IMG/VR virus record: IMGVR_UViG_3300020707_000007
Span: 1 to 49,049 of that record
Length of the DNA: 49,049 nt
Strand: one strand, 5' to 3'
DNA from: a virus
Taxonomy: Duplodnaviria > Caudoviricetes
Positions 17,398 through 42,335 of this stretch are shown piece by piece. The stretch's first letter is position 1; each line of letters starts with the position of its first letter. The notes under the pieces are model-generated. The model saw nothing but the letters and a program-made list of their open reading frames with translations, made no database searches and had not been told where the DNA came from. A program made the position numbers and the translations under genes.

Positions 17398-18228
17398 TTA
17401 TTCACCAAAATATTCTTTTAAATAGGCTTCTCTTGTAATTAAACCTTGCTTTTCAAACTTCTGACAAGCTGCTTTAGCTTCAGGAGGCAAGTCGTTATAT
17501 CCCTTACCACCCTTTTGATTAGACTTAGGAGCAGTTGTTCCCTCTACAGGAGATGGTCTTGCACGGTTAGTATTGGTAAACTTTTCAGGATACATCTTTT
17601 TAACACGCTTAGTAACCTCGTCTAGGAACTCAGAACCAATCAGTGTTGGGTTTTGACGTTTGATAACTTCACCGATTAGGTTAGCTTCGTTGGTCAATTC
17701 TGTGTCTTTGCCAAACCAAGCATTTTCTTCATTCCATTGAACGAATGATGGGTCAGGTTGATTAGATGCACGAGCAGCTACAGGGTCAGGTTTACGAGCT
17801 TTAAGGTCATCAATAGCGTCATCAATCTGCAGAACCTTGTCTCCGTCACCAGTAGAAATAGCTTCTTTCTTTTGGTCACGTAGGTCTGCCATTGCACGGT
17901 CATAAGCCCGTTTTTCAGTCTCAGCATGGAACTTTTTAAATTCGTTCATTGTGGACTTCATTTCAGCCACTTCACGCTTTAGGAAGTCGTTGTCTTTTCG
18001 CAACAGAGCATTAATCTCTTTACCTTTTTTTACAAAGGTTTCTGCGTCAACCCATTTATCTTCTGGGCCGTTATAGTCTTCTTGGGGAACCCAACCTTGG
18101 CGTTTTGCCTCGGCTAACGTCTCTTCATCAATATCAGGTGTAGCGTCAGACTGCACACCTGCTTCTACTTCTTGGGATGCTGAACCATCTAATGATTCAG
18201 GTGCTACTTGGGCTAATTCTTCACTCAT
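17398..18228 (-). CDS. Scaffolding protein
   Basis: Acidic coiled-coil, GW.P.E...WVDAETF; between portal and capsid. Confidence 0.65.
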   Translation of the reverse strand: MSEELAQVAPESLDGSASQEVEAGVQSDATPDIDEETLAEAKRQGWVPQEDYNGPEDKWVDAETFVKKGKEINALLRKDNDFLKREVAEMKSTMNEFKKFHAETEKRAYDRAMADLRDQKKEAISTGDGDKVLQIDDAIDDLKARKPDPVAARASNQPDPSFVQWNEENAWFGKDTELTNEANLIGEVIKRQNPTLIGSEFLDEVTKRVKKMYPEKFTNTNRARPSPVEGTTAPKSNQKGGKGYNDLPPEAKAACQKFEKQGLITREAYLKEYFGE

Positions 18229-18548
18229 TTGCTATCTCCTAGTTTGGTAAGGCATATATCTAAATCGTTTAAGACTCGGTATTCGATTCCGTCTTCTGAT
18301 TCGTCTGGGGTGATAAGTTGACCAGCGTAACGTCCAAACTTGACGTAGTCACCGACTTTACACCAAGGGGATTCTTGGTCGGAATAAGCAGTATTCCCAA
18401 CTTCGACGACGATTCCACCGTCTTGACCAAGCTGTTCTCGCTTAGTAACGTCTTTGGGAATAATAATGCCGCCTTGAGATACTTCTTCAACTTTCGTGAC
18501 CTTTACCAAGACACGATGTCCTGTTGGCTTCCATCCTGATGTATTCAT
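18225..18548 (-). CDS. groES: GroES/Cpn10-like co-chaperonin
   Basis: KPTGHRVLVK...GGIIIP...VVEVG...KVGD.V.FGRYAG...ND.DI. Confidence 0.9.
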   Translation of the reverse strand: MNTSGWKPTGHRVLVKVTKVEEVSQGGIIIPKDVTKREQLGQDGGIVVEVGNTAYSDQESPWCKVGDYVKFGRYAGQLITPDESEDGIEYRVLNDLDICLTKLGDSK

Positions 18549-23030: not shown

Positions 23031-23220
23031 ATATAGAGGAGAGTATAACCTCTAAATTTGAAAATTACTATATACGCAGGAAAGCGATATTGATTTTGAG
23101 TGAAAGTCTCATTTTCCTATAGAGAGAGGAAAGTCTAAATTTGAAATTTGGTTGCGTCGTCGGAAGCGTGGTTATAACTATATTAAGCACAATCCGTTTC
23201 CCCCTCCCCTACCCAATACC

Positions 23221-23234
23221 TAGGGTTTACCCTA
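23221..23234. promoter_or_regulatory. Palindromic operator TAGGGTTTACCCTA
   Basis: 6-2-6 palindrome; related sites at 23558-23570 and 30415-30429. Confidence 0.5.
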
Positions 23235-23236
23235 AC

Positions 23237-23252
23237 CTGTATGGATATACAG
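23237..23252. promoter_or_regulatory. LexA (SOS) box
   Basis: CTGTATGGATATACAG = CTGT-N8-ACAG with AT-rich core, intergenic. Confidence 0.7.
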
Positions 23253-23506
23253 CGCTGCCTGGCAAGGGGATAGCATGGTGGGGGGAGTGTGTCTCCTATA
23301 TATAGAGAGAGTAATTAAGGGGTCTCCTTAGCCTAGGGGTAGCCTTGGGGAATTCCCATGAGGGGGCGGGTGACTGTGTAGCTGACCCATACGGGGTAAA
23401 ACGGGGTGAGATATGTCTTACTCTCTATGTATTCCCCTATAGTCTTATTCTCTCTCTATTTAATGGTTTAACTAGGTTTGTATAAGGTTTAATGTCGGCC
23501 GCTTCA

Positions 23507-23570: not shown

Positions 23571-23657
23571 AGTAAATATATTACAAAAGTTATTTGTATT
23601 GATGTATAGTTCTTACATGGCATCGGGGGATGTCTAATTACTTAAAGGGAATACATC

Positions 23658-23924
23658 ATGCTAGGAATTACTACTAAATACTTGTCACCTACAAACACAA
23701 GGGGAGCACGCATCAAAGCATCTGTATGGAATTGGGCTAAAGATAAAGAAGAGAGCGTAACAATATCTTATCCCCATGCTTTTAGCGGCGAGTTGTGCCA
23801 CTTTGAAGCTGTAAAAGAATTGGTTAAGAAATTAGACTTGCAGGTGTCTATTAACAATATGCGCTTTGGCGGTCTTAAAGATGGATATTGTTTCACCTTT
23901 GAATCTTCTGTAGTAAAGGGTTAA
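23658..23924 (+). CDS. Early hypothetical protein
   Basis: ITTKYL.PTNTRGARIKA motif common in phage early genes; AAGGGA RBS. Confidence 0.7.
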   Translation: MLGITTKYLSPTNTRGARIKASVWNWAKDKEESVTISYPHAFSGELCHFEAVKELVKKLDLQVSINNMRFGGLKDGYCFTFESSVVKG

Positions 23925-23927
23925 ATC

Positions 23928-24026
23928 ATGCGTAAATTATTAGACCAAATTATCAATACTCTTTTGTTCCTTGCGTTAGGTTTTACGCTAGGCTATCTCG
24001 GTGCAGTAGCTTTGACGGGGGTTTAA
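23928..24026 (+). CDS. Small membrane peptide, 32 aa
   Basis: Hand-translated MRKLLDQIINTLLFLALGFTLGYLGAVALTGV; RBS AAGGG. Confidence 0.55.
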   Translation: MRKLLDQIINTLLFLALGFTLGYLGAVALTGV

Positions 24027-24028
24027 TC

Positions 24029-24265
24029 GTGAGTAAATTTATTGTGACATGGGTAAGAATATCCCATTTAGCAGAAGATATAGAGGTGGAAGCGCAAACA
24101 GAGGAACAAGCTAAAAAGATAGCCAGCCAATTATTTACGGGTGGAGAAGAGGTCTACGCAGAAGAGTTTTGTAATGACATAGAAGAGGTTGAAGAAGAAG
24201 AGCAACAAAAGAAAGATGAATGGCTTAGACAGACTAACAAAGAGATAAGAGAGGGGGCAGTATGA
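24029..24265 (+). CDS. Acidic early hypothetical protein
   Basis: VEA.TEEQA motif; GGGGG RBS. Confidence 0.6.
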   Translation: MSKFIVTWVRISHLAEDIEVEAQTEEQAKKIASQLFTGGEEVYAEEFCNDIEEVEEEEQQKKDEWLRQTNKEIREGAV

Positions 24266-24372
24266 CACAGACACAACGCTTTCACTACACACTTACTAGG
24301 GCTTATGGCCGTGGCTTAGTATCAGCCCAACAGATAGCCGAATTAGTAGCCATTTACAGGGGTTTTAAATGA
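24262..24372 (+). CDS. Small hypothetical peptide, 36 aa
   Basis: ATGA coupling at both ends; RBS GAGGGGG. Confidence 0.45.
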   Translation: MTQTQRFHYTLTRAYGRGLVSAQQIAELVAIYRGFK

Positions 24373-24545
24373 GAGTTCCAGCCATACCCATTACAGACCC
24401 ACGGTTCCAGTATGTCCCAGCAGCTAAAACCGACATAAGAGACACATTCAGACGAGCAAGGGAACAAATGCAGACACAGAAAGAGCCTATTCTGAGTCCT
24501 GGGGCGTTTGTTCTACCTGCTGAATGGTTTGAGATTTTGGAGTGA
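24369..24545 (+). CDS. Small hypothetical protein, 58 aa (..DPRFQYVPAAKTDIRDTFRR..)
   Basis: Hand-translated; ATGA coupling. Confidence 0.5.
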   Translation: MRVPAIPITDPRFQYVPAAKTDIRDTFRRAREQMQTQKEPILSPGAFVLPAEWFEILE

Positions 24546-28936: not shown

Positions 28937-30378
28937 CGTTTAGCTCCGTGTCTAAATGCAATCATGCGTGATTTAATATAGTTAAGTGTGTCTAGTGAGG
29001 GTATACGTGGAACGTCATTGAGTCCCTTAGGCCATACTCCACATTTATTACGATACATCTGCGCTGCAAAGCCTCTTTTATACCCTTTTTCTACTTCAAC
29101 ATAGAGAAGCTCGGAATAGAGGTTTTGCTTGTCTTCCATTGTGACTTTCTTCCTGGTAACCTCCAGTAAGTCCCCCTCCTGGACATCAATACCCGCATCT
29201 TTCTTTTTCGGAACAAATCCGCAACATGGACACGAATACTCGTGCTTTTTCCTGACAAAAGCGCATGACGGGCAGATGCGCCCTTTCTCTTCCTGTACCT
29301 TCGTAGTTCTTTCCACCTTCTTTTTAGTCCCATCATCTAATTCCTGTGGTAGTTCATCGGTTACAAAACCATGTGCTTGGGTGTTTCCTGCATGGTCTAA
29401 AATGATTGCATCTTCTTTACTAGAGTGTGTACGTAACACACGCCCTGCTTGTTGTATATACAGCATGAGGGACTTGGTTGGTCGTGCCATAATAAGGCAT
29501 GAAGTCTCAGGATAATCAAAACCCTTGTCTAGAATGCCTACGTTAAATAATACTTTGATATATCCCTCTTTAAAACTTTTGACCGTCTCTTCACGTTCTT
29601 TCTTTGGCATATATGCGTCAATATGGGCTGCACGGATACCACGGTCTTTAAATTGCTCGCATAATGCTTGACTATGCAAGACATTGACAGCGAAGCCAAT
29701 TGTTGGGCGGTTCTCTCCTCGCTTTATCCAAGTATCTACAATGTCTGCGACGAGTTTTGGTTTATTGACACGGGCGAAAAGCTCTTTTTCGTCATAATCG
29801 CCCCCTATCATCCTGATTTTGGTAAGGTCTGGCTTACTTGGAGCAAAGACTTTAACGGGGACGAGGTAACCTTCGTCTGTCAGTTTGGATGTAGTGGCAC
29901 CTATCACTAGGTTGCTATACATTTTTCCCAGTCCTTTGGTAAAAGGAGTTGCTGACAGGCCAATAAATACGGTATTTGGCATGGCTTCCATCATCTTACG
30001 GTGGACGTTATAGGCTACGTGGCACTCGTCAATAATGACTAAATCTGCAGGAGGAGTAGCTCTACGAGTCAGTGTTTGAGGACTACATACTTGATTAATA
30101 GAATGAGGCTTATAACGAGGGTTATCCGCCATAATAATTCCGTGGTCAATACCTTCATAATCTAGCCTTTTACTGGTTTGTTCAACAAGTTCAATGCGGT
30201 CAGCAAGGAATAAACACTTCTTACCTTTTTCATTTGCTTTCCTAATCATTTCAGATGCAATTGTAGTTTTGCCACCACCTGTCGCAAGTTGTAGAACTAT
30301 GCGCTTGTGTCCACGGAGAATAGCTTTTCTAAGGTCGTTGATGGAATCGACCTGGTACTGCCTTAAATTGTTCTTCAT
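28930..30378 (-). CDS. SF2 DExH helicase (RadD/YejH-like) with Zn finger
   Basis: ATGGGKT, DECH, SAT, QQAGRVLR, CPSC...CPCC. Confidence 0.92.
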   Translation of the reverse strand: MKNNLRQYQVDSINDLRKAILRGHKRIVLQLATGGGKTTIASEMIRKANEKGKKCLFLADRIELVEQTSKRLDYEGIDHGIIMADNPRYKPHSINQVCSPQTLTRRATPPADLVIIDECHVAYNVHRKMMEAMPNTVFIGLSATPFTKGLGKMYSNLVIGATTSKLTDEGYLVPVKVFAPSKPDLTKIRMIGGDYDEKELFARVNKPKLVADIVDTWIKRGENRPTIGFAVNVLHSQALCEQFKDRGIRAAHIDAYMPKKEREETVKSFKEGYIKVLFNVGILDKGFDYPETSCLIMARPTKSLMLYIQQAGRVLRTHSSKEDAIILDHAGNTQAHGFVTDELPQELDDGTKKKVERTTKVQEEKGRICPSCAFVRKKHEYSCPCCGFVPKKKDAGIDVQEGDLLEVTRKKVTMEDKQNLYSELLYVEVEKGYKRGFAAQMYRNKCGVWPKGLNDVPRIPSLDTLNYIKSRMIAFRHGAKRA

Positions 30379-30414
30379 AAACTCTATTATCTCACTACTA
30401 AAAAAGAGTACTAG

Positions 30415-30760
30415 TAGGGACTTTCCCTATGTAAGAAAAAGTTTCCCGAACGGGAAGAATTGATAAAAAAGTGTGCAAAAGTAGAAAAATATTCCCGAAC
30501 GGGGCATTTTGTAGAATTTAGTAAATGACTCATTAATAAGGCTTTAAGTTATTTAAGGACTCTTTAATAAGTCTTTAACTTTACAATTCTGTCTCCATAA
30601 CTTTACAATCCGTCGGAATAACTTTACAAATACCGACAATATGTATATTTTTTGCTGATTTTTATACATATAAATATCCATGTATATACAAAATATATAC
30701 CTTTAGGTATCAAATAAGAATCATTCTCATGTAAATTTCATGCAAAAAATGGTCTTTTTG
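30415..30760. promoter_or_regulatory. Dense array of palindromes and direct repeats (operators and/or origin)
   Basis: See findings; includes Fur-box-like TAAGAATCATTCTCA at 30715-30729. Confidence 0.6.
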
Positions 30761-30784
30761 ATTATTTAATACTAAGGTAAGTTC

Positions 30785-30995
30785 CCGTTGACTTTGGTGA
30801 AGATGAACTCAGCCTACCCCATTACTGAGGTGGCCTTCATCTAATTTGACTTATGGAGCCAGATAGAACCCGTCAGTCTTGCGAGGAATCGGCACTAACT
30901 TCGCCACCGATATTGCGTTGTTACATCCTCTTACCCTGCTAGTAACGCTTGTATCTAGGTTGCTACGATGTCGTTAGAGCCGCCAACCTAAACCG
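30785..30995 (-). ncRNA. Candidate multi-stem structured RNA
   Basis: At least four hairpins in an ORF-free, GC-richer island. Confidence 0.5.
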
Positions 30996-30998
30996 CAG

Positions 30999-31124
30999 AA
31001 AACAAAACCCCTTGGGGTTACATTAAGGTGACTTGTTTAATAAATGGCTCTAATTCATTTACTAAACACTCAATGCAACCCGAAGGGGTCTGGTTTAGAG
31101 CAATTGTACTAAGCAGAAGTCACC
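30999..31124 (-). ncRNA. C4/CI-like antisense RNA with upstream target boxes
   Basis: Stem 31008-24/31072-88 then U-tract; inner stem; loop and bulge complementary to 31095-101 and 31117-124. Confidence 0.65.
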
Positions 31125-31154
31125 CTGCCAATACAGAATACCACACTTTTTAAA

Positions 31155-31367
31155 TTATTCCAACTGGGTGAAGAAAGATTTATACGGAACCCCATACTTC
31201 TTGTGTAAAAGAATCTTATATTCATCTGGAATGGCCTTTACCTTGTTCCAATGAAATATTCGTTGTTGGCTAACTCCCAAGGCTTTTGCCGAAGCATTTA
31301 ACGAACCGTGTTTTTTTACAACATAAATAAGTGGTAAATAAAACCTATCTGTAGTACCCGTTTCCAC
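31155..31367 (-). CDS. Cro/YdaS-like HTH regulator
   Basis: GSLNASAKALGVSQQRIFHW...IP; GTG start with AGGAG RBS. Confidence 0.75.
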   Translation of the reverse strand: METGTTDRFYLPLIYVVKKHGSLNASAKALGVSQQRIFHWNKVKAIPDEYKILLHKKYGVPYKSFFTQLE

Positions 31368-31412
31368 ATTTTCTCCTATATCTAGTATTAGGGAATATAC
31401 CACAAAATATAT

Positions 31413-31442
31413 TTGCACAAGTAATATTTGTAGTGATATAGT
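31413..31442 (+). promoter_or_regulatory. Sigma70 promoter of rightward operon
   Basis: TTGCAC-N18-TATAGT with extended TGn. Confidence 0.6.
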
Positions 31443-31473
31443 TTAATCTCACTAACACAAAGGGAGAAGTGAC

Positions 31474-31767
31474 ATGGGATATGACAGTTGGTTGCAAAGC
31501 GGTGCTTATGACAATGAAGATGAAGAAATCTACATTGAGAACAGAGTTCCTGAGTTGATGGAAGAAGAGGACTATGACCCTTCAGATGTATCACACATGG
31601 CAGAGGCTATCTCTGAGGCTTCAGAAGATGACCAAGCTACCATCCGTGACTACATTGAACAAAAGGATTGGGCTAAGTTGGGATTGAAGTTGTACGTAAT
31701 GTCGTACGACTACATGGAGAAGTTTGCTGAATCTGCAGCACAACGTGAAGTGGAGCAAGGACTATGA
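31474..31767 (+). CDS. Highly acidic hypothetical protein
   Basis: YDSWL motif, Asp/Glu-rich; AAGGGAG RBS. Confidence 0.7.
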   Translation: MGYDSWLQSGAYDNEDEEIYIENRVPELMEEEDYDPSDVSHMAEAISEASEDDQATIRDYIEQKDWAKLGLKLYVMSYDYMEKFAESAAQREVEQGL

Positions 31768-31837
31768 GAATACCGCCTGTAATGCCCGTTATTCCGCTTG
31801 TGCCAACTCACAACAAACAACCACCAAAGGATAGAAA

Positions 31838-31981
31838 ATGAAACAACTATTATTATTAAGCATTACTTTAGTCGGATTGACTATGTGCCACTATGCACCT
31901 GCTCAAACCACTCAAATCATTACGCCAGACGGTAAAATGGTTACTTGCATTCAAAACGGACAGCTAATTACCTGCTTTTAA
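31838..31981 (+). CDS. Small secreted peptide, 47 aa
   Basis: Signal-like MKQLLLLSITLVG..APA then TPDGK..TC...TCF. Confidence 0.6.
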   Translation: MKQLLLLSITLVGLTMCHYAPAQTTQIITPDGKMVTCIQNGQLITCF

Positions 31982-31982
31982 T

Positions 31983-32183
31983 ATGACAACCTTTACATTT
32001 GAAGACTACACACCATTTGAACCACCTAGAAAGGCATTAACAGATGAAGAAATCGACGTTATCGGATTTAATCTTAACTATCCGTTCTCTATTCGAAAAA
32101 TTGCTAGGGCCATCGAAGTCGCCCACGGAATTGTCCAGGAGAGCAGTATCCAAACCAAGGAGAGCACCAGTGAAAACAGTTAA
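31983..32183 (+). CDS. Hypothetical protein
   Basis: LTDEEI...ARAIE.AHGI motif. Confidence 0.6.
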   Translation: MTTFTFEDYTPFEPPRKALTDEEIDVIGFNLNYPFSIRKIARAIEVAHGIVQESSIQTKESTSENS

Positions 32184-32403
32184 AGTACCTGCAGTAAAAA
32201 AGACTAGCGGTAAAGTAGTCAAGGCTAAATCTAAACAACAGTCACATGATGATTTAAAGACTGAGGGTCAACGTGGATTTATTCTGTCAGACGGAACATT
32301 TGCAGGGCGTGAAGAGGCTGCAACAGTAGCCAAGAAGGCCAAGCAAGTTCCTAAGACTGTAAAGAAATTACACTTTGAAGACTTGCGGAAGAAAAAGAAA
32401 TGA
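32170..32403 (+). CDS. Basic hypothetical protein
   Basis: GTG start with AAGGAG RBS; GF..SDG.F..REEA...L..EDL motif. Confidence 0.6.
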   Translation: MKTVKVPAVKKTSGKVVKAKSKQQSHDDLKTEGQRGFILSDGTFAGREEAATVAKKAKQVPKTVKKLHFEDLRKKKK

Positions 32404-32498
32404 AATTTAACAATGTTGAAGGACTGCTTATTGTAATCCTCTGCATTACATCAGTTGTGGACACAGTGGTTAATATCTTAACTTACATTAAAGGGTGA
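32400..32498 (+). CDS. Small membrane peptide, 32 aa
   Basis: ATGA coupling; hydrophobic core. Confidence 0.45.
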   Translation: MKFNNVEGLLIVILCITSVVDTVVNILTYIKG

Positions 32499-32499
32499 T

Positions 32500-32718
32500 A
32501 TGGGTGAGGTTATAGACTTTCCAGACGGCACAGTAGGAGATGTACCAGTAGATGGTGTTCTTGATGGTGCCAAGCTATTGCAGATGGTTTGCATCATGGG
32601 TTACGACAAAGATGGTAATGAATACTTTGCTAGTAGCTCTGGGGACATTAAAGAGATTAATTGGTTGTTAGATAGGTATAAAAACTTTTTACAGGGGATT
32701 GCAGATGACGGGGAATAA
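32500..32718 (+). CDS. Hypothetical protein
   Basis: GYDKDG.EYFASS...WLLDR pattern. Confidence 0.6.
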   Translation: MGEVIDFPDGTVGDVPVDGVLDGAKLLQMVCIMGYDKDGNEYFASSSGDIKEINWLLDRYKNFLQGIADDGE

Positions 32719-33211
32719 ATGGGACGCTTTACAAGAGTTCAAAAATTGGTGGATGAATAATGGTTGCCCCATAGTTCCTCCATTTGAAAGTCCTATTCAC
32801 TGTACTGATATTGCCTATGCCTTGTGTATATACAGGTCAGGAAGATTCCAAGTAGAGCTATATGTTGTCAAGCCCAATACAGAGACTACAAAGCATAGTC
32901 ACCCTAATATTGAGTCTATCTCTATGTACCTTACTGGCAATATGTCATTTGCTAAAGAAAATGGTGATTACCTTGATTTAAGTGCATTACAGAAAGAAGC
33001 AGAGAATGGTACTCATGTTCTTTTAGGCACCGTTGCAGAATCAAACGATGGTCAAGTTCATTCACTTAAAGTAGGCCCTGAAGGTGGTGCTTTCTTAATA
33101 TTTGAATTTTGGAAAGATAGAGACCCTGTATCAGTAACTGTACATTGGGAAGGTGATTTGGTGGGAGACCAACACGCACAAACGAAAGGTAGTTATGTGG
33201 TCAACAGTTGA
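32705..33211 (+). CDS. Cupin-like protein, paralog 1
   Basis: HSHPNIES...H metal motif. Confidence 0.6.
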   Translation: MTGNKWDALQEFKNWWMNNGCPIVPPFESPIHCTDIAYALCIYRSGRFQVELYVVKPNTETTKHSHPNIESISMYLTGNMSFAKENGDYLDLSALQKEAENGTHVLLGTVAESNDGQVHSLKVGPEGGAFLIFEFWKDRDPVSVTVHWEGDLVGDQHAQTKGSYVVNS

Positions 33212-33836
33212 GGAGTTTAGAGATTGGTACATGGGTAATGGTATGCCAATCAGACCACCATTTAAAAATCCAGTATTTGTTACTGACAATGCAATGTCAT
33301 TGTGTTTGTTTCGTGAGGGAAGGTTTCAGGTTGAGTTGTATCTAAATGAACCATTTGCCACCTCTCCTCCACATACTCACCCAGGTGTCGAGTCTGCATT
33401 TGTCTATCTAGCAGGAAATATTCAATTTAATCTTGAAGGTAGGGATAACCCTGACGCACAACAATGGCAAAAACCATCACCTGAAGGCTATCATATGTTG
33501 TTTGGCAAAACTGTTAGCTCTCCAGATGGAATTCCACATTGGTTAAAGATTGGGCCTGAAGGGGGAGCATTCCTATCTTTTGAATATTGGAAAGACCAAG
33601 ACCCAGTATCGGTTACGGTAAACTGGAATGGGGATTCAGTAGGAAAAGAGCACGATAAGATTTTAAACAAGGGGGATAAAGTGAGCAAGATACAAGATGC
33701 CTATGAAGATTGGGCGGAAGAGTGGAAACCAGTAAACAAAATGCAACACCATCCAAGCAGCTATGAAGGATTTGAAGCTGGATGGATGGCTGCTATTGAG
33801 GTGATGTTAGAACGCCTAGAACTGGCTAAAACATGA
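33195..33836 (+). CDS. Cupin-like protein, paralog 2, with C-terminal extension
   Basis: HTHPGVES...H; shares GRFQVELY, GPEGGAFL, DPVSVTV.W with paralog 1. Confidence 0.6.
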   Translation: MWSTVEEFRDWYMGNGMPIRPPFKNPVFVTDNAMSLCLFREGRFQVELYLNEPFATSPPHTHPGVESAFVYLAGNIQFNLEGRDNPDAQQWQKPSPEGYHMLFGKTVSSPDGIPHWLKIGPEGGAFLSFEYWKDQDPVSVTVNWNGDSVGKEHDKILNKGDKVSKIQDAYEDWAEEWKPVNKMQHHPSSYEGFEAGWMAAIEVMLERLELAKT

Positions 33837-34018
33837 ATTTAAAAGATATGCAAACTGACCTAGAAATGGTTGCTGTTCAAGAGTTTAGATTTGACTACCA
33901 TCCGTTTTATTCTTATCCAGTAATTTATACAAAGCATGGTTGGAAAAACGCAAAAACTGGTGAAATAACTTGGGAAAAAGTTAATATCGAACCATTGGGA
34001 AGGGCGCAAAACAAATGA
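33833..34018 (+). CDS. Hypothetical protein
   Basis: ATGA coupling. Confidence 0.5.
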   Translation: MNLKDMQTDLEMVAVQEFRFDYHPFYSYPVIYTKHGWKNAKTGEITWEKVNIEPLGRAQNK

Positions 34019-34188
34019 TTGAAACTCTAGTCAAGCCTGTCCCATTAGATAACGATATTGCCGTAATGAAGATATTGCATTTGATGGGGCAGTTAAGCCC
34101 TAAGGACATTAAACACGTTTTGACTATTGGTATGAGTGTATACAAGGTGGTAAGCAAGGAGGAGCCTGTTGATTCCAGCTATGCGTAA
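34015..34188 (+). CDS. Hypothetical protein, 57 aa (MIETLVKPVPLDNDIAVMK...)
   Basis: Hand-translated; ATGA coupling. Confidence 0.5.
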   Translation: MIETLVKPVPLDNDIAVMKILHLMGQLSPKDIKHVLTIGMSVYKVVSKEEPVDSSYA

Positions 34189-34540
34189 CGCACAGGCTAC
34201 CCATGTAGACTTTGGATTCTTACGAGGGTTTATACCTAGTAACCCTAAATTCATGCCATCTAACATTGATATGGTTCTAGAGCGTAGAGGCGTATTTTTG
34301 TTTGGGGAGTGGAAGCGTGAAGATGAAGAAATTAGCCAAGGACAAAAGATATTACTGACCAATCTAGCTTGGCACCATACGGTTATAATTATTACGGGAT
34401 ACGTAGACGACAAGCCTCACATTGGGTTAATTCAAAAGATGACCCCAACTGGTAAGTTAACTGTAGTGGGACAAGGTGAAGAGGACTTAATTAACTTTTT
34501 ACGTGGCTGGTATGTAGAAGTAGAACGAGGTATTTTGTAA
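34169..34540 (+). CDS. Small PD-(D/E)XK-like nuclease
   Basis: SNID...GEWK...SQGQ..LL. Confidence 0.55.
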   Translation: MIPAMRNAQATHVDFGFLRGFIPSNPKFMPSNIDMVLERRGVFLFGEWKREDEEISQGQKILLTNLAWHHTVIIITGYVDDKPHIGLIQKMTPTGKLTVVGQGEEDLINFLRGWYVEVERGIL

Positions 34541-34554
34541 ATTTAGGAGAAGTG

Positions 34555-34722
34555 ATGATTGATTATTCTGAAATGAAAATGAACATTCAGAAATTAAACG
34601 AGCAAATTTATAGTTATATGAATGCTCGTAATGTAGTAGCAGCACAAGAAGTAGCAGAGAAGTTAGAAATGTCAGCAAGTATGTTAAAAAAATACATTGA
34701 CTGGATTGCAACACACAAGTAA
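34555..34722 (+). CDS. Hypothetical protein, 55 aa (MIDYSEMK...)
   Basis: Hand-translated; AGGAG RBS. Confidence 0.55.
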   Translation: MIDYSEMKMNIQKLNEQIYSYMNARNVVAAQEVAEKLEMSASMLKKYIDWIATHK

Positions 34723-34725
34723 AAT
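34697..34725 (+). promoter_or_regulatory. Sigma70 promoter for recombination genes
   Basis: TTGACT-N17-TAAAAT. Confidence 0.6.
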
Positions 34726-34744
34726 TTGTAAGGGAGGTGGGAAA

Positions 34745-34933
34745 ATGTCACAACAAGAACACTATGAAACAGTCATGCGTGAGCAAGAGCAGTTAGAGGC
34801 TCGCTTACAGGACTATAAATTTCACAAAGATAAGTTGGAATGGGAATTAATGTCAGTAACAAATGACATAGAAAAGATTGAAACTTTAATAGCGCAATTA
34901 GAAAAGGAGTTAGGTAATGTCTCTCACAGTTAA
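34745..34933 (+). CDS. Small coiled-coil protein
   Basis: GGAGG RBS; heptad pattern. Confidence 0.55.
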   Translation: MSQQEHYETVMREQEQLEARLQDYKFHKDKLEWELMSVTNDIEKIETLIAQLEKELGNVSHS

Positions 34934-35525
34934 TGCAGGTAACGGTGGTGGTGGTGATTTTGAACAGTGTCCAGCAGGTTCATTTGCTGCACGATGCTAC
35001 CAAATTATTGATTTAGGTCATCAAACCTTTGAATGGAAAGGTGAGGCCAAAGTAGCACCTAAAGTTCGCATCACTTGGGAACTCAATGAGATGATGCAAG
35101 ATGGTCGTCCATTTTCAATCTCACGTGAGTACACAGCATCCATTGGTGATAAGGCTAACCTACGTAAGGATTTAGAAGCCTGGCGTGGTCGTCCATTTAC
35201 AGCAACCGAATTACAGAACTTTAGTCTTGAGAATGTATTGGGTGCTCCATGTTTGTTAGGTGTGGTACATAAGCCATCTAAGGACGGTTCTAAAGTTTAT
35301 GCCAACGTAGGCTCAATCATGGCTTTACCAAAAGGTATGGCTTGCCCTGAGTTGGTTAACCCTGCTGTCAAGTTTGACATCGGCACCTTTGACCAAAAGG
35401 TATTTGACGGATTGTCTAGCTATGTTCAAAAGAAGATTCTGATGAGCAAAGAACTAGAAGAGAATGGGATTCCACAGACTCGTCAAGATGAGCCTGTAAT
35501 TGAATCGGAAGAAGTACCGTTTTAA
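34917..35525 (+). CDS. Phage ssDNA-binding/replication protein
   Basis: PAG...ARC..IIDLG, KANLRKDLEAWRG; acidic EEVPF tail. Confidence 0.7.
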   Translation: MSLTVNAGNGGGGDFEQCPAGSFAARCYQIIDLGHQTFEWKGEAKVAPKVRITWELNEMMQDGRPFSISREYTASIGDKANLRKDLEAWRGRPFTATELQNFSLENVLGAPCLLGVVHKPSKDGSKVYANVGSIMALPKGMACPELVNPAVKFDIGTFDQKVFDGLSSYVQKKILMSKELEENGIPQTRQDEPVIESEEVPF

Positions 35526-35646
35526 TATCTGGGCGGAATCGGGGATTCTCGAAAGTAGCCCTTGTTCGGACAGTGCAGTAGTAATAAAGAACACGGAGAG
35601 GCTACCCCCGTCTGCATAGGTAGCCACTAATTTAGGGGATTTAGGG

Positions 35647-36459
35647 ATGAAACTTACAAACAAATTTAACCTGCCTGACCCAATAGTCAACGCAGTACAA
35701 AACCAAGGGTATACCCCAGGTAGTAGTGATATTACGGTTACGCAGCTAATCCAACCGCCTTTGATTCGTCAATTACGGATACAGCACGATAATGACATCG
35801 AGGAAGATGCTTCAGACCGTGTTTGGGCGTTGTTTGGGACTGCAGTCCATCACCTGCTTGAAATGGCCTATAAAGGGCGTACAGCACGTGTAGAGGAGCG
35901 AGTCTATGCCGAGGTATCAGGATGGAAGTTAGGGGGCGCATTCGACGTTTTAGAGGGTTCTAGCCTATCTGATTACAAGGTGACTTCCGTATACTCTTCA
36001 GACGGCAAAATTGAGTGGGAACGCCAGTTAAACGTCTTGAGATGGCTATTGCATAAAAACAACACAGAAGTGACAAAATTGAGCATTACAGCCATTTTTA
36101 GGGATTGGAGACCTCGTGAGGCACAGAAAAACCCTGACTATCCTAGAAGACCAATTATGACCCTTCCTGTACGGATGTGGACACTAGATGAGGCAGAGGC
36201 TTATGTCAAAGAACGTATTGCATTGCATCAATTAGCCGAGCCACCAATGTGTACAGATGAGGAAAGATGGACTACTCCTGAACAGTGGGCTTTGATGAAG
36301 AAGGGTGGCAAACGAGCTATCAAACTATATCCGTCACAAGAGGGTGTTACACTCGGCACAGACCAGTTCTGGGAACATAGACCAGCTACTTACCGACGAT
36401 GTGAAGATTACTGCTCTGTTGCGAAATGGTGTCCTTTGTGGCAAGATGTAACTTTCTAA
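35647..36459 (+). CDS. Cas4/RecB-like PD-(D/E)XK exonuclease
   Basis: GTAVH..LE, G.FD, DYK, QLN, C..YC....WC. Confidence 0.8.
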   Translation: MKLTNKFNLPDPIVNAVQNQGYTPGSSDITVTQLIQPPLIRQLRIQHDNDIEEDASDRVWALFGTAVHHLLEMAYKGRTARVEERVYAEVSGWKLGGAFDVLEGSSLSDYKVTSVYSSDGKIEWERQLNVLRWLLHKNNTEVTKLSITAIFRDWRPREAQKNPDYPRRPIMTLPVRMWTLDEAEAYVKERIALHQLAEPPMCTDEERWTTPEQWALMKKGGKRAIKLYPSQEGVTLGTDQFWEHRPATYRRCEDYCSVAKWCPLWQDVTF

Positions 36460-36468
36460 GGAGAGTTT

Positions 36469-36951
36469 ATGTTGACGCAAGAATTGGCAAACAAGTATTT
36501 TGAATATAAGGATGGCACTTTGTATTGGAAAGAAAAGACAAGCAACAAGAGTAACGTAAAGATTGGTGATGCTTGTGGTCGTCAAAACAAAGATGGATAT
36601 ATTCAAACAACGGTACATCACAAACTATATGGTAATCACAGGATTATATTTTTGATGCACCACGGATACTTGCCAAAAGAGATTGACCATATTGACGGAA
36701 ACCCATTTAATAACAGGATTGAAAATTTAAGAGAGGCTACGAGGGCCGAAAACCAATACAACAGAAAAGTTGGTAAAAACAACACATCTGGTGTAAAAGG
36801 TGTAAATTGGCACAAATATAAACAGAAGTGGACTGCTAAAACTAGCGTAAATGGTAAGAGGCATTACTTGGGATATTTTGACACAATTGAAGACGCTGCA
36901 AAAGTAATTCACCAGTTTAGAGAAGACAACCACGGCAATTTTGCTAGGTAG
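36469..36951 (+). CDS. HNH endonuclease with AP2-like C-terminal domain
   Basis: HRII...IDHIDGN..NNRIENLR...N; SGVKGV.W...YLGYF. Confidence 0.9.
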   Translation: MLTQELANKYFEYKDGTLYWKEKTSNKSNVKIGDACGRQNKDGYIQTTVHHKLYGNHRIIFLMHHGYLPKEIDHIDGNPFNNRIENLREATRAENQYNRKVGKNNTSGVKGVNWHKYKQKWTAKTSVNGKRHYLGYFDTIEDAAKVIHQFREDNHGNFAR

Positions 36952-36988
36952 TATGGTCTAACGTAACCTTTTAAGATAAACTAACAAA

Positions 36989-37054
36989 TGACACGGCAAG
37001 CACTCATCCCCCACTTCCCCCCGACGGTTCCCCTCCGTCTAGCTTGTCGTGTCA
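36989..37054 (+). ncRNA. Candidate sRNA with C-rich anti-SD loops
   Basis: 13-bp stem TGACACGGCAAGC/GCTTGTCGTGTCA, inner GACGG/CCGTC hairpin; upstream TTGCTA-N17-TAACCT (36941-69). Confidence 0.6.
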
Positions 37055-37070
37055 CCTATTAGAGATTGAT

Positions 37071-37496
37071 ATGACTACCATTGTTGGCGATTGGATTAAT
37101 AAAAAATTAGTTGCAGACAGTCAGTTTTCAGATGATGATTCTGGTATTAAATACTTTGAAGATAAGATTATTGCAATAGAAGGTGGTTACCTTGGTGTTG
37201 CAGGTAGTTGGGTAGATGGGGAAAAGGTTGTTGATTATATAAATAAGAAACAAAAGACGAAACCGAAACTACATACCGATAGTTCTTTCCTAAAATTGAC
37301 CGATGAAGGTCTTTTTTCTTGTGGAGATGACCTAGAATGGGAACGAGTTAGAACCTTTATGGCTATTGGCAGTGGCTCAATGGCTGCAGAGGTTTGCATG
37401 AGAATGGGATTAACTGCAGAAGAAGCTGTCAAATGGGCGTGTAATGTGGACTTAAAAAGCCACGAGCCAGTCAAAACATATAAATTGGGCGAATAA
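37071..37496 (+). CDS. HslV/proteasome-beta-like Ntn peptidase
   Basis: N-terminal MTTI, ADSQ, K, GVAG, AIGSG, A...D. Confidence 0.75.
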   Translation: MTTIVGDWINKKLVADSQFSDDDSGIKYFEDKIIAIEGGYLGVAGSWVDGEKVVDYINKKQKTKPKLHTDSSFLKLTDEGLFSCGDDLEWERVRTFMAIGSGSMAAEVCMRMGLTAEEAVKWACNVDLKSHEPVKTYKLGE

Positions 37497-37497
37497 C

Positions 37498-38454
37498 ATG
37501 GTACAAGCACGATGTAGCGATGAAGATTTTATAGAACTGTGGCGAAAGCATAAATCTGGAACCAAAGTAGCAAAAATATTAGAGATTGATGTCCGAGCGA
37601 CAATGGGGCGACGAAAGCGAATAGAAAAGAAATACAACATTAAATTAGAAGCAAAAGAATATGGCACTCCTAGATTAACTATTCCTGAGAACAAAGTCCG
37701 CACCAATCTTTCTATGGAAAATGGAACGATTGTTGTGGGTTCTGATTGCCACTACTGGCCTGGATATGTCAGTACCGCCCATAGAGCATTTGTACATTTA
37801 ATTACACGTTTAAAACCACAGGGAATAGTTCTTAACGGTGACATTATGGATAATGCCACGATTAGCCAGCACAATAGGATTGGGTGGGATAAAGCCCCAA
37901 CTGTGAAGGAAGAATTGGAAGAAGTACAGGCTCGTCTAGGTGATATTGAGAAGGTTAGACCTGCAGGAGCATTTATGCACCGCACCATTGGTAATCACGA
38001 CCTACGCTTTGATGGCAAATTATCTAATGTATTAGGGCAGTATGAGGGCGTACCTGGTATGGCACTAGCCGACCATTTACCTGGATGGACATACAGTTGG
38101 TCATTGATGGTTAACAACACTTGTATGATTAAGCACCGTTGGCATAATGGTCAACATGGTGTATTTAACAACACCCTTAAATCGGGGGTAAGTATGGTTA
38201 CAGGTCATCTACATTCCTTGAAAGTGACTCCGTGGACTGACTATAATGGTGACAGATATGGCGTTGACACAGGAACAATGTCGGCAATTGGAGGAGACAA
38301 GTACATCTACACGGAAGACTCGCCCGTCAATTGGCGTTCAGGATTCGCAGTACTTACATTCCGTGATGGAGAACTTATGCCGCCAGAACTTGTACAAGTC
38401 ATTAGTGAGGATGATGGATTGGTGTTCTTTCGAGGAGAGGTAATAAAGGTCTAA
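37498..38454 (+). CDS. Calcineurin-like metallophosphoesterase with N-terminal HTH
   Basis: SDCH, NGDIMD, GNHD, GHLH. Confidence 0.85.
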   Translation: MVQARCSDEDFIELWRKHKSGTKVAKILEIDVRATMGRRKRIEKKYNIKLEAKEYGTPRLTIPENKVRTNLSMENGTIVVGSDCHYWPGYVSTAHRAFVHLITRLKPQGIVLNGDIMDNATISQHNRIGWDKAPTVKEELEEVQARLGDIEKVRPAGAFMHRTIGNHDLRFDGKLSNVLGQYEGVPGMALADHLPGWTYSWSLMVNNTCMIKHRWHNGQHGVFNNTLKSGVSMVTGHLHSLKVTPWTDYNGDRYGVDTGTMSAIGGDKYIYTEDSPVNWRSGFAVLTFRDGELMPPELVQVISEDDGLVFFRGEVIKV

Positions 38455-38455
38455 T

Positions 38456-38665
38456 ATGGATATTAAAGTCAAAATCATTAAGGAAAACAAAGATGGTTCA
38501 GCCAATGCTCAAGTCGATTTCGATAAAGAAGGGCTTGAAACACTTGTCCAATGGGGGCTTGTTGCTATGCTTACCAAAGCAATTGATGAATACAAGGTTA
38601 GACCCGATGAAGATGAAGTCACTCTTGAGCCTGAATTCCCAATCAAGAAAAGGAAAAAGAAATGA
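38456..38665 (+). CDS. Hypothetical protein
   Basis: KEN.DGSA motif. Confidence 0.55.
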   Translation: MDIKVKIIKENKDGSANAQVDFDKEGLETLVQWGLVAMLTKAIDEYKVRPDEDEVTLEPEFPIKKRKKK

Positions 38666-38674
38666 GGTACTATC

Positions 38675-39187
38675 GTGAACCGTAATTGGGATAAATGCTT
38701 TGACCTAGTTATTGTCAACGAGGGAGGCTACGTTGATAATCCTGCCGACCCTGGAGGTGCTACTAACTGGGGATGTACTAAAGCTGTATGGGAACAATAC
38801 ATAGGGCATGAAGTTTCAAAAGAAGATATACGCAATCTGACAAAAGAAGACGTTAAGCCACTTTATAAAAGGAACTATTGGGATGCCATACACGGAGATG
38901 CTCTTCCTTCGGGACTTGACTATTGCCTTTTTGATTGTGCTATCAATAGTGGTGTTGGCCGTGCAACCAAGTTTATCCAAGAAATTGTGGGTGTTTTTGC
39001 TGATGGTGCAATCGGCAATAATACTGTTACTGCTATAAATCAAATGAATACAGTAACAATGATTAATGAGTTTTCGGATAAGCGTCAAGCATTCCTAGAG
39101 ACACTCAAGACTTTCCCTGTATTTGGCAAAGGTTGGACTAAACGGGTAACTGAAGTTAGAATTAAATCTTTAGAAATGGCGGAATAA
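38675..39187 (+). CDS. Endolysin, glycoside hydrolase family 108 with PG-binding domain
   Basis: EGGYVD.P.DPGGATNWG, FD.A.NSG, DG.IG..T, FGKGW..R. Confidence 0.9.
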   Translation: MNRNWDKCFDLVIVNEGGYVDNPADPGGATNWGCTKAVWEQYIGHEVSKEDIRNLTKEDVKPLYKRNYWDAIHGDALPSGLDYCLFDCAINSGVGRATKFIQEIVGVFADGAIGNNTVTAINQMNTVTMINEFSDKRQAFLETLKTFPVFGKGWTKRVTEVRIKSLEMAE

Positions 39188-39188
39188 T

Positions 39189-39338
39189 ATGGCAACTAAA
39201 CCTGGTTTGTACGCAAACATTCATGCTAAACAAAAACGTATCAAGGCTGGTTCAGGCGAGAAGATGAGAAAGCCTGGAACTAAAGGTGCTCCTACTGCTA
39301 AAGCATTCAAAGAGTCCGCTAAGACTGCTAAAAAGTGA
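39189..39338 (+). CDS. Small basic peptide, 49 aa (MATKPGLYANIHAKQKRIKAGSGEKMRKPGTKGAPTAKAFKESAKTAKK)
   Basis: Hand-translated; starts 1 nt after endolysin stop. Confidence 0.7.
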   Translation: MATKPGLYANIHAKQKRIKAGSGEKMRKPGTKGAPTAKAFKESAKTAKK

Positions 39339-39427
39339 GGGGACAGCCTCTCGACTCCCGATTCGTTGATGGTCTAGTTGGAAAGCCACAAAACAACTAG
39401 ATTAAGCATACCCTCTCGGTGGCTTGA

Positions 39428-39841
39428 CTATTTGATACCCACTTGTTCTCGAATCCACTCTTGAAGTGACTCAAGTTGCTGAGTCGTCATTGCACATTTT
39501 TCAACAAATTGTGGGTCGGAGGGCGTTCCATCAACGAAGGGGACGGCTGTGCTGGTGATGGACATTGCACTGCTACTGGCGTTGACGTGCAACCCACCAT
39601 AGTAAGTATGAATGCGAGCAATACTATTCTTGTAATCATTGGTAATTCTCTCCGTTGTTACTTGTTGTTCCTTGAGGATTTGTTCATTCTTTGCTTCTTG
39701 CGCTTTTCCTGCTGCTTCAACACGCTCCTGATATGCCATAAATCGTGAATGCTCAAAGCTATAGCCAAGATACACGCACCCACAAAGTACCAAAGCAACC
39801 AATCCAATTTTGACATAATTAATAACCGATAAAGGGAACAT
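39428..39841 (-). CDS. i-spanin (Rz-like)
   Basis: N-terminal TM helix, coiled coil, C...LQEW end. Confidence 0.75.
   Translation of the reverse strand: MFPLSVINYVKIGLVALVLCGCVYLGYSFEHSRFMAYQERVEAAGKAQEAKNEQILKEQQVTTERITNDYKNSIARIHTYYGGLHVNASSSAMSITSTAVPFVDGTPSDPQFVEKCAMTTQQLESLQEWIREQVGIK
39487..39639 (-). CDS. o-spanin (Rz1-like) embedded in i-spanin
   Basis: Alternate frame MITRIVLLAFILTMVGCTSTPVAVQCPSPAQPSPSLMERPPTHNLLKNVQ; lipobox MVGC, Pro-rich. Confidence 0.8.
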   Translation of the reverse strand: MITRIVLLAFILTMVGCTSTPVAVQCPSPAQPSPSLMERPPTHNLLKNVQ

Positions 39842-40608: not shown

Positions 40609-41007
40609 TTAGGTAGCTTGGGTTTGTGCAGTTAGTATGCCGTTGGTAAATGTCATGCTTCCGTTGGTGCCGCCAGAAGTTAATTTAGCTGTAGTAATTG
40701 TGACAGATAACCCAGTTGGTGTGCCTGTAATTGCTGAATAAGGAATAGTAGTAGAGGCTGTAACTGGCCCTGTGTTATGACCGTATAAATATCCAGTTAA
40801 TCCTGGAGTTTGAATATTTGATAAATTTGTATTGGCAACGTTACCGCCTGTAATATTGACATTATCATAATTTTGATAAGCCATTGTTCCTAGCTGGTCT
40901 AAATTACCATTGGTTTGAGAAAAAATGGTATAAAACCAATCCCTAAATTGTCTAGTATCTAATGCTTGATTGGTTGGAGGAGGGGGAGGAAGCATCTTGA
41001 TTGGCAT
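40609..41007 (-). CDS. Tail needle/fibre-like virion protein
   Basis: LGTMAYQN...VNITGG and GS.TFTNGILT motifs. Confidence 0.5.
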   Translation of the reverse strand: MPIKMLPPPPPTNQALDTRQFRDWFYTIFSQTNGNLDQLGTMAYQNYDNVNITGGNVANTNLSNIQTPGLTGYLYGHNTGPVTASTTIPYSAITGTPTGLSVTITTAKLTSGGTNGSMTFTNGILTAQTQAT

Positions 41008-42335
41008 TACTCATCCTCTTCCATTTCGTCATAGCACCAATTCTCAGCATATCCATACTTCTGTAAAGCGGGGATTTGATGCTCCATACCCTCACCAATG
41101 TCATCCCTTACGTTAATACAGTCAGGAATCTCAATTTTCTTGACGTTTTTATAGGCACGTTCACAGGCTTGTTTAACGGTCTTTCCTACCCCGTTTGCAA
41201 CGAGTACATAGTCACCTGCCGTCACTAAGCAAGGACGCTCTACAACCCCGTTTTCGTCGTTCTGAGGGGCATTGCCAACCATGACCTCACATAAGGCATA
41301 ATCTTTTGTTAATTCATCTGGAAGACCATAGATAGGAAATCCTGTATGGTCACGCCCCGTAGTCTTAGACCTAGGGTAATCCCCAATAGGGATAACAATG
41401 CCAGTAGCAGTGTCGTAGCTAACTTTGAGAGTATCTTTGCCATCTAATAGGTCACACATCCAATCTACAACAGACCCCTTATGGAGGGCTTGCTGAATGT
41501 TAAATAAAGGCCATCCTTTACGCATAGTCCACTCTAATGGGCGTGGCTCACCTTTTTCATCAATAATGAATGCCAAGTCTACATATCCAGTATGTCCGAT
41601 ATAGCATAGGTAGTCTTCAAAGCGTTTGAGGGTGTCATTGAATAGGTTGGACTCGGTGTAATACTTAATGACAGTTCCCTGTTCACCTGTATTACAGCCA
41701 TAGTTACCTGACATGAGCTTCTTATGCTCAAAGCCTTCTAGGATGTTCTTACCAAATCCATTAGGGCCTATCCAAGCACCTACTCCGAACTCTATTCCTG
41801 GGACAAACTCTTGTAGGATGAAATCACGTCGTTTACCAGTTTCTTTCCATCGTTGAAGCATGAAGACCATATCTGCCGCTGATTTAGATACATAAGATAG
41901 AGCCTTGTCTGCATCACCACTGGGTTTAGAGACGTATCGTTTGGGATTAGCTTTAACAAAGTCGATAGCACTGTTGTAGTCCTTAAATTCAAATGAAGGA
42001 ATAACTGATAATCCAGCCTTCTTCATAATGTCTTGACCATAATCACGGTCTAGTTCTAGTTTTGCACCAAGCATATTGGTACCGATAATTGGGTAACCCT
42101 CTTCATGGAACTTTTCTAGTTCACGCATTTCAAAAGCGTTATCCGATAATACGATGAGGTCTGCTTGTCTGGCATGGATTTGCCAGTTCTGTACTTGGTC
42201 AATCAATCCACGACCAATCTTAGAACGCTCCTGACCGTGTGGACGCACCCATTGTTTTACTTCGTGTCCTTCAGCAAGACAACGAATACCAAAGTCAACC
42301 AATGCTCCTGCAGGGTCAAGCAATAATATGCGCAT
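41007..42335 (-). CDS. PurD(GARS)-like ATP-grasp ligase
   Basis: AKLELDR, VSKP.G, LQEFVPG.E, EHKKL..GN.G.NTGEQGT, LEW..R.G.P, R.DIG. Confidence 0.8.
   Translation of the reverse strand: MRILLLDPAGALVDFGIRCLAEGHEVKQWVRPHGQERSKIGRGLIDQVQNWQIHARQADLIVLSDNAFEMRELEKFHEEGYPIIGTNMLGAKLELDRDYGQDIMKKAGLSVIPSFEFKDYNSAIDFVKANPKRYVSKPSGDADKALSYVSKSAADMVFMLQRWKETGKRRDFILQEFVPGIEFGVGAWIGPNGFGKNILEGFEHKKLMSGNYGCNTGEQGTVIKYYTESNLFNDTLKRFEDYLCYIGHTGYVDLAFIIDEKGEPRPLEWTMRKGWPLFNIQQALHKGSVVDWMCDLLDGKDTLKVSYDTATGIVIPIGDYPRSKTTGRDHTGFPIYGLPDELTKDYALCEVMVGNAPQNDENGVVERPCLVTAGDYVLVANGVGKTVKQACERAYKNVKKIEIPDCINVRDDIGEGMEHQIPALQKYGYAENWCYDEMEEDE

Follow-up and report, generated by a model that had tools for sequence, protein, structure and literature searches.

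The whole stretch of phage DNA analysed here, 49,049 nucleotides in length (the window), contains a conserved phage RNA element of about 67 nt that is real and uncatalogued. The element has a definite fold, lies on the plus strand, occupies a fixed place after the exonuclease gene, and possesses an unpaired C-rich bulge that co-varies with the leaders of early genes. We consider it probable, with moderate confidence, that the element is a trans-acting antisense small RNA. Its bulge is predicted to pair with leaders of the genes that the phage itself expresses first, and would thereby damp them. Such pairing is likely because the C-rich strand changes in step with these leaders. The features concerned are listed in Table 1.

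Table 1. Positions of the RNA element, its predicted targets and neighbouring features in the window
Feature	Position	Strand	Remarks
Predicted target 1: hairpin with GGGG loop, predicted 5' end of second early transcript	23619..23634	+	-10 box at 23605-23610
Predicted target 2: RBS and spacer of gene 31474-31767	31462..31471	+	net -9.9 kcal/mol
Gene 31474-31767	31474..31767	+	first gene of rightward early operon; acidic helical protein, 97 aa
Predicted target 3: RBS of gene 34745-34933	34732..34741	+	10-bp pairing; net -17.2 kcal/mol
Gene 34745-34933	34745..34933	+	62-aa coiled-coil-like protein; precedes ssb-like gene
Sister hairpin with GAA/AGUA closing stem	35531..35561	+	1 in window; shuffle mean 0.05
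Predicted target 4: RBS and start codon of exonuclease	35635..35649	+	two-seed pairing; net -15.3 kcal/mol
Exonuclease gene	35647..36459	+	phrog_2139
HNH endonuclease gene	36469..36951	+	phrog_99; most relatives lack it at that place
Candidate -10 box TAAACT	36977..36982	+	start would be 36988-36990, at stem base
RNA element, about 67 nt	36989..37056	+	outer stem 36989-37001/37042-37054, then ACC (37054-37056)
Unpaired C-rich bulge, 21 nt	37002..37022	+	two predicted seeds: 5' CAUCCCCC, 3' CACUUCCCC
Inner hairpin, 5 bp, 7-nt loop	37023..37039	+	100% of cells paired; double-sided change in 4 of 5 pairs
HslV-family peptidase gene, downstream of element	37071..37496	+	phrog_1040

Structure and conservation of the RNA element

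The original prediction had described a 13-bp closing stem, an unpaired bulge and a 7-nt loop, and all three were found as claimed. The energy of the fold was -30.2 kcal/mol (z -3.1), a value equalled by 1 of 200 shuffled sequences, and the cost of opening the bulge was 0.1 kcal/mol. When viral and metagenome contigs were searched by pattern and by protein, 29 distinct versions of the element were obtained, 24 of which were aligned. In this alignment 94% of the cells were paired (34-51% in slid controls), double-sided changes occurred in 13 of the 17 pairs (none of 500 shuffles was as high), and RNAalifold recovered the same fold unaided. The unpaired cells come from four of the 24 sequences (L247, L249, L251 and L252), in which the middle of the outer stem is a GAA/AGUA internal loop.

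The outer stem consists of 12-13 bp. The bulge, 17-24 nt in length, is C-rich and unpaired in all variants, and UCCC is present in it in the variants of the 24-sequence alignment. The loop of the inner hairpin had also been proposed as a pairing strand; it is C-rich in the window, but not in several relatives (L182, L183, L203, L207, L243 and L734).

All 25 wobble cells are G-U on the plus strand. A minus-strand RNA or terminator was rejected from this result and from the scores of the covariance model, which were 96 bits on the plus strand and 11.6 on the minus strand. We also rejected a small ORF beginning at the ATG at 36988, since its frame and length vary among relatives and the stem changes are not synonymous. 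The view that the element is merely the leader of the HslV-family gene was abandoned as well, because this gene is exchangeable and HslV genes 78-87% identical mostly stand without the element.

Distribution and genome setting

The window contains one copy of the element, as does each of five further records. It was present at 31 of 32 distinct loci with an exonuclease at least 60% identical, loci with less than 200 nt of flank being left out of the count; at the one remaining locus the contig ends 258 nt on, inside an HNH gene. When the exonuclease was less than 60% identical, 1 of 64 loci gave a match, which was obtained with the loose descriptor only and is not confirmed by the covariance model. 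No Rfam family matched the element, and no similar DNA was found in annotated phages. Chromosomal copies were not found in 151 Burkholderiaceae-centred genomes examined with 30 candidates each, in which three weak matches were unrelated plain hairpins. That is, the element was found in phage contigs only. Our literature search yielded no description of this RNA. Its family may be included in PMC5737381 or among the more than ten thousand candidate viral RNAs of PMC10690425.

The structural genes of this 49-kb virus record lie on the minus strand. Small genes form two rightward modules (23658-24545 and 31474-39187), and a leftward replication block lies between them. In every relative examined, the element sits 3' of the exonuclease gene or of an HNH gene inserted there. 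As for the HNH gene of the window, the last codons of an exonuclease-like end are repeated behind it, as after a homing event, and in other relatives this site is occupied by different HNH genes. The HslV-family gene downstream is swapped for another gene in some carriers of the element, and more distant phages have this gene without the element. A PHROGs scan of the 72 proteins of the window, many of which had no match at all, found no integrase, antirepressor or named repressor, and the only lead to a repressor was a weak Cro-like match.

Gene 31474 encodes an acidic protein of four helices, which has 187 relatives, none of them named, and matched no Pfam family, PHROG family or Foldseek entry. 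There were two weak leads to lambda Gam, a feature score of 0.82 and a comparison with GamS (Z 4.8, rmsd 5.0, 71 aligned residues) that was within noise.

Co-variation of the bulge with early leaders

Bulges were sorted into types. Type A comprises the window and most relatives; B is L203; C, L207 and L243; D, L247-L252 and G002; E, L165, L244 and L246; F, L238, L239 and L253; G, L176; and H, L734. Leaders were at hand for types A-D and H, and for type F by way of a contig overlap of 99.6%. Types B, C, F and H each come from one genome or population, and there are four to six seed types in all.

Co-variation between the element and ribosome-binding sites, a check that the original prediction had proposed, was found for genes 31474 and 34745, neither of which it had listed, and for the site at 23625. 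The two genes were chosen after the pattern had been seen by eye in types A-D, and types H and F were added later. With five types, the pairing of leaders with their own seeds ranked 2nd of 120 for gene 31474 and again 2nd of 120 for gene 34745. The addition of type F gave rank 4 of 720 for gene 34745, and rank 1 of 24 when B was merged with C and F with H. When type D was left out, the 3x3 matrix for gene 31474 was still diagonal. In type D the first gene is a positional equivalent that does not align to 31474, and the counterpart of 34745 has the first ten residues alone in common.

Single-letter changes in the spacer occur in both genes at once, namely AAGU with seed ACUU, AAUU with seed AAUU, and GGAUG with seed CAUCC. 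The letters that vary are those of the spacer, which are not read by the ribosome, and the leaders of 31474 and 34745 share the same few words across the phage group. Fifteen other genes were ranked as controls, and three genes had too few types. The ranks were 1, 3, 4, 4, 6, 8, 19, 20 and 22 for the nine genes with 24 pairings and 7, 11, 32, 84, 84 and 108 for the six genes with 120 pairings, with weaker energies in both groups.

The start of the exonuclease gene, which had been proposed as a target, was retained with its two-seed pairing, but its co-variation was weaker (rank 6 of 120); one exonuclease leader is common to several seed types, and one has no match. Two further mosaic exceptions were noted. 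L668, L737 and L739 have an A seed with H-type leaders, and the L237 group showed a poor match at 34745 (-9.6).

When 13 sites of the window were scored with the opening costs of the target included, the five best were all early: 34745 (-17.2 kcal/mol), the exonuclease (-15.3), 33681 (-11.4), 31474 (-9.9) and 23625 (-9.6). The others were five minus-strand leaders (-8.9 to -1.6) and three plus-strand sites (-8.3 to -7.7). Against its own bulge, the 34745 leader was the best of 87 leaders in the window, the second of 73 in G001 and the best of 79 in G002, the rankings in these three complete genomes being based on automatic gene calls, spurious frames included. In G001, three of the ten same-strand exact 8-nt complements of the own seed are the leaders of 31474, 34745 and the exonuclease. 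Gene 41007 was rejected as a target; the 8 nt that match there belong to the coding end of the gene before it, lack conservation and are buried. The comparative evidence for self-targets is direct to an unusual degree, but the independent types are few.

G-rich leaders within the window

The five G-rich sites named by the original prediction (23625-23632, 24251, 32693, 33671 and 35634-35650) are present, and the capsid gene uses AGGAG as it had said. Poly-G leaders are enriched on the plus strand as a tendency, but they do not define a class of genes. With hand-curated starts, GGG was found at -20 to -4 in 12 of 24 plus-strand and 5 of 44 minus-strand genes (Fisher p 0.0009), and GGGG in 6 of 24 and 4 of 44 (p 0.15). 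The division of early and late genes by the type of ribosome-binding site is not clean: five minus-strand genes are G-rich (4788, 18548, 25477, 47076 and 48644), and five plus-strand genes carry GGAG without GGG. For the site at 33671, which ranked 22nd of 24, co-variation was not seen.

If the window is taken by itself, pairing was no better than the C content predicts (p 0.19-0.73 when non-C letters were permuted), and none of its sites exceeds this C-preserving control. The support comes from comparison between genomes. The idea of one trans-acting RNA directed at early leaders was supported in silico for specific targets, but its extension to all poly-G sites was too broad.

Leader hairpin of the second early transcript

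The site at 23625-23632 had been taken for a ribosome-binding site. In fact these letters form the loop and the 3' strand of a hairpin in the leader. The real start codon, at 23658, follows 26 nt later, and the second early transcript is predicted to begin 8 nt before the site. It is an exact complement of the 5' seed, and the sole plus-strand one among the four exact 8-nt complements of the bulge in the window. The GGGG-loop hairpin is kept in G001 and G004, and that of G001 matches its own seed over 7 nt only. In G002, which is of type D, a hairpin stands at the same place in the homologous module, and its loop and 3' strand (GAGGGAGUG) are an exact complement of the D seed; among five sites, this is the sole same-strand exact 8-nt complement of the genome's own seed. 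Exact 8-nt matches to the own seed occur in 0.2-0.3% of 60-nt windows.

The energies of the hairpins alone favour the own seed both ways (-17.2 against -13.2 and -14.7 against -10.4) in what is a single contrast of A with D. Over whole leaders this preference at the hairpin is lost, because a downstream G-run pairs with any C-run. Opening of the G002 hairpin costs 8.4 kcal/mol, leaving a net value of -6.3. The leader hairpins contain G-U pairs, which favours an RNA structure over a DNA operator. Pairing at 23619-23634 would have to be in trans, because the leftward block stands between the element and this transcript.

Start and end of the RNA

The original prediction had placed a promoter, TTGCTA-N17-TAACCT, before the element. 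The letters are present, but they score 7/12 and were missed by the promoter scan, the -35 hexamer falls in the end of the HNH gene that most relatives lack, and TAnnnT occurs at this -10 position in just 12 of 26 distinct upstream sequences. In contrast, TAnnnT is found 13 or 12 nt before the first G of the stem in all 26, where the window has TAAACT. The conservation of this candidate -10 box is not explained by coding, because it lies past the exonuclease stop codon. Its -35 is weak, at most 3/6. The stem begins with G behind an A-rich leader, and its first letters are GAC, GAG or GGG.

No terminator-like site was found on the plus strand between 34000 and 40000, and no U-run follows the stem in the 24-sequence alignment. 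The three bases after the stem were ACC in 16, AAC in 5, CCC in 5 and CCA in 1 of 27 variants. The RNA may have a promoter of its own with the start at the foot of the stem, may be released from the early transcript by processing, or may arise in both ways. Since there is no terminator, its 3' end may be formed by processing near ACC, or the RNA may be the 5' leader of the peptidase-phosphoesterase-endolysin transcript.

Proposed action of the element and alternative explanations

We suppose that the RNA would accumulate once transcription of the early operon is over. The 21-nt strand with its two seeds would be kept open by the stem, and helices of 8-10 bp would fit within one turn. The bulge may cover the Shine-Dalgarno site and spacer of 31474 and of 34745, as well as the exonuclease start, and may open the 5'-terminal hairpin of the second early transcript. 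Both early transcripts contain predicted targets, one at its first gene and the other at its 5' end, and so do the recombination genes. Early genes that are strongly translated would in this way come under negative feedback after a delay, and a phage that enters later with the same leaders would be hit too. Delayed feedback and kin exclusion give the same sequence picture and cannot be told apart by sequence.

Only a small number of trans-acting phage RNAs have known targets in their own phage, and most of them come from temperate phages (c4 and others listed in PMC12197685). If the present reading is right, it would show that the spacer letters between the Shine-Dalgarno site and the start codon can serve as an RNA address. 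Early shut-off in a phage with no obvious repressor or polymerase of its own becomes testable, because the natural variants are compensatory pairs (A, B, D and H).

Among the other explanations, we regard as unlikely a general anti-Shine-Dalgarno RNA acting mainly on host mRNAs or on any G-rich site, for which the phage matches would be side effects. The C-runs do supply most of the pairing energy, UCCC-type seeds of RsaE act on many mRNAs (PMC2790875), and the recurrence of the sister-hairpin insert in unrelated phages suggests host-facing RNAs in these cassettes; however, a fixed host target leaves unexplained both the spacer letters linked to the seed in two genes and the leader hairpin. 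Co-variation with distant leaders and a C-rich bulge of 17-24 nt that is unpaired in all variants are unaccounted for if the element works in cis only, whether it stabilises the downstream transcript at its 5' end, serves as a processing site there, or gives 3' protection to the exonuclease mRNA. A role in cis would agree with the candidate start at the stem base, the lack of a terminator, the 10-45 nt that separate the element from the next start codon, and the short duplicate stems ending in ACC or CCC that follow the element in L166, L179, L203 and L238. The downstream gene is nevertheless exchangeable and its leader has no match to the bulge (hslV mean -3.3), and we think this explanation quite unlikely.

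It is very unlikely that the element is antisense to the G-rich stretch of host 16S rRNA at about 186-206 and disturbs the assembly or function of the ribosome. The A bulge gave -30 kcal/mol against one 16S gene from a Burkholderiaceae sample (L784), with none of 30 full shuffles as good, and types C and H pair too. This site was, however, the best of about 1500 positions, and its opening costs 12.9 kcal/mol. Permutation of the non-C letters gave p values of 0.01-0.03 for one C variant and the majority of the A variants, and of 0.16-0.70 for types B, D, E, F and H. The stretch also differs in two other 16S genes. Rho prefers C-rich RNA, and the long unpaired pyrimidine tract on a rigid scaffold, with a loop-E-like module in the distant form, could be a decoy for such a binder or a site for a phage protein. 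We give this reading as little credence as the preceding one, because the element is short for such a site and protein binding does not predict sequence-specific co-variation with leaders.

Comparison with known RNAs

In its predicted manner of working, the element is like c4 or RsaE, and it is a member of neither. The loops of c4 pair near the ribosome-binding site and set P1/P7 heteroimmunity (PMC12197685, PMC5320573). Like c4 (RF01695), the element is a short phage RNA within an early operon, and the segments that its paired scaffold leaves unpaired are complementary to mRNA of the same phage close to the ribosome-binding site (same sources for c4). In both, seed and target differ together between relatives, for the element as seen in silico. 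However, c4 gave no match at the gathering score in the window and six relatives, and none at E up to 5 in 30000-39500. While c4 has three stem-loops, P1-P3 (PMC5320573), the element consists of an outer stem, a large bulge and one hairpin. c4 targets ant mRNA, whereas the element has several predicted targets on two transcripts and a candidate promoter of its own. c4 also controls an antirepressor operon in a lysogeny immunity region, and no such names were found with PHROGs among the 72 proteins of the window, many of which had no match. RNase P releases c4 from a longer precursor by a cut at the foot of the stem, which gives a GGW start. The stem of the element likewise starts with G behind an A-rich leader and is followed by ACC, CCC, AAC or CCA, but its first letters are GAC, GAG or GGG, and the -10 box could give the same 5' end as an RNase P cut.

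RsaE possesses an unpaired UCCC directed against ribosome-binding sites (PMC2790875) and acts on its mRNA targets by blocking the initiation complex, and the element resembles RsaE/RoxS in having an unpaired UCCC(C) predicted to cover Shine-Dalgarno sites. In contrast to RsaE/RoxS, which are chromosomal genes of Staphylococcus and Bacillaceae, the element is phage-encoded and was found in phage contigs only, has another fold, and shows no Rfam match and no terminator. Its predicted targets are leaders of its own phage that co-vary with the seed.

The CI RNA of phage-plasmid P4 is a processed stem with a bulge and a loop and is encoded in the transcript that it controls, and the element would resemble it in these respects. 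CI acts on its own leader, where it makes transcription terminate at two sites; the element has no Rfam match, and its predicted targets are kilobases away. The prophage anti-sRNAs AgvB and AsxR carry exchangeable seeds on a shared scaffold and have an intrinsic terminator with a U-tail at the 3' end. Their exchangeable seeds resemble the hairpin cassette around the exonuclease gene, whereas no terminator or U-tail was seen in the element. They act on host sRNAs (PMC12197685), and the element matches phage mRNA leaders.

Sister hairpins around the exonuclease gene

Upstream of the exonuclease gene, the relatives have one or two hairpins with a GAA/AGUA closing stem, which we take to be a loop-E-like motif. 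They have varied inserts, mostly end with ACC, all lie on the early strand, and are often in tandem (seen in L155, L178, L207, L238, L254, L539 and L549-L652). The distant form of the element (L247 and L249-L252) is built on this same stem. One GAA/AGUA pattern led to 104 loci in viral contigs, and no Rfam match was obtained for these hairpins in the loci scanned. One insert (core CUUCACAUAC) recurs in unrelated phages, and because part of it sits in the type B bulge, it suggests that seeds may move between scaffolds. An exact complement of this insert was found in 1 of 201 genomes, no more than for the reversed control.

These hairpins give a first view of a larger family, so far uncatalogued, in which loop-E stems close inserts that can be exchanged. 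A tentative and rather doubtful extension of our reading is that there is a modular small-RNA cassette near recombination genes, of which the member in the window is a one-RNA early shut-off switch acting on two transcripts, and that the seed types are exclusion groups. If this were true, a shared closing stem, plain or of loop-E type and ending in ACC, would take swapped seeds, and the letters of the RBS spacer would form an RNA 'immunity' code among phages that show no lysogeny genes.

Two more small stems lie before the exonuclease gene, at 35566-35627 (+). The second of these (about 35599-35624) has a C-rich loop and shows a compensatory change in L163.

Other features of the record

The two ends of the contig share diverged copies of the same structural genes, 87-95% identical (1-573/41923-42493, 3181-6375/45520-48663 and 6908-7300/48657-49049). 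It is therefore probable that two related strains are joined in the record or that the assembly is too long. An Rfam Betaproteobacteria-1 RNA (90.7 bits) occurs at 30868-30993 (-), within the leader of the helicase-primase block and behind a Cro-like gene, and hints that the phage host is a betaproteobacterium; this RNA is present in L203 too.

The region 23100-23480, between a terminase-side gene and the second early promoter, is non-coding and has many inverted repeats and G-runs; it is possibly a packaging or origin region. The strongest raw duplex of the bulge (-30 kcal/mol) falls at 23265-23292 (+), in non-coding G-rich DNA that precedes the point where the second early transcript is predicted to start. 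We also observed a GroES-like gene at 18225-18548 (-), two similar genes in tandem without a family match at 32705-33836 (+), and an ATP-grasp (GARS-like) gene at 41007-42335 (-).

A second conserved structured RNA lies after the spanin gene at 39332-39449 (-), and it is weakly like Rfam Atu_At1 (44 bits, cut-off 60). Among 33 variants, changes in a short segment close to the 5' end are matched by changes in an internal loop (GCCAC/GUGGC, GACGG/CCGUC and GCCGA/UCGGC), which suggests that this RNA may hold a pseudoknot.
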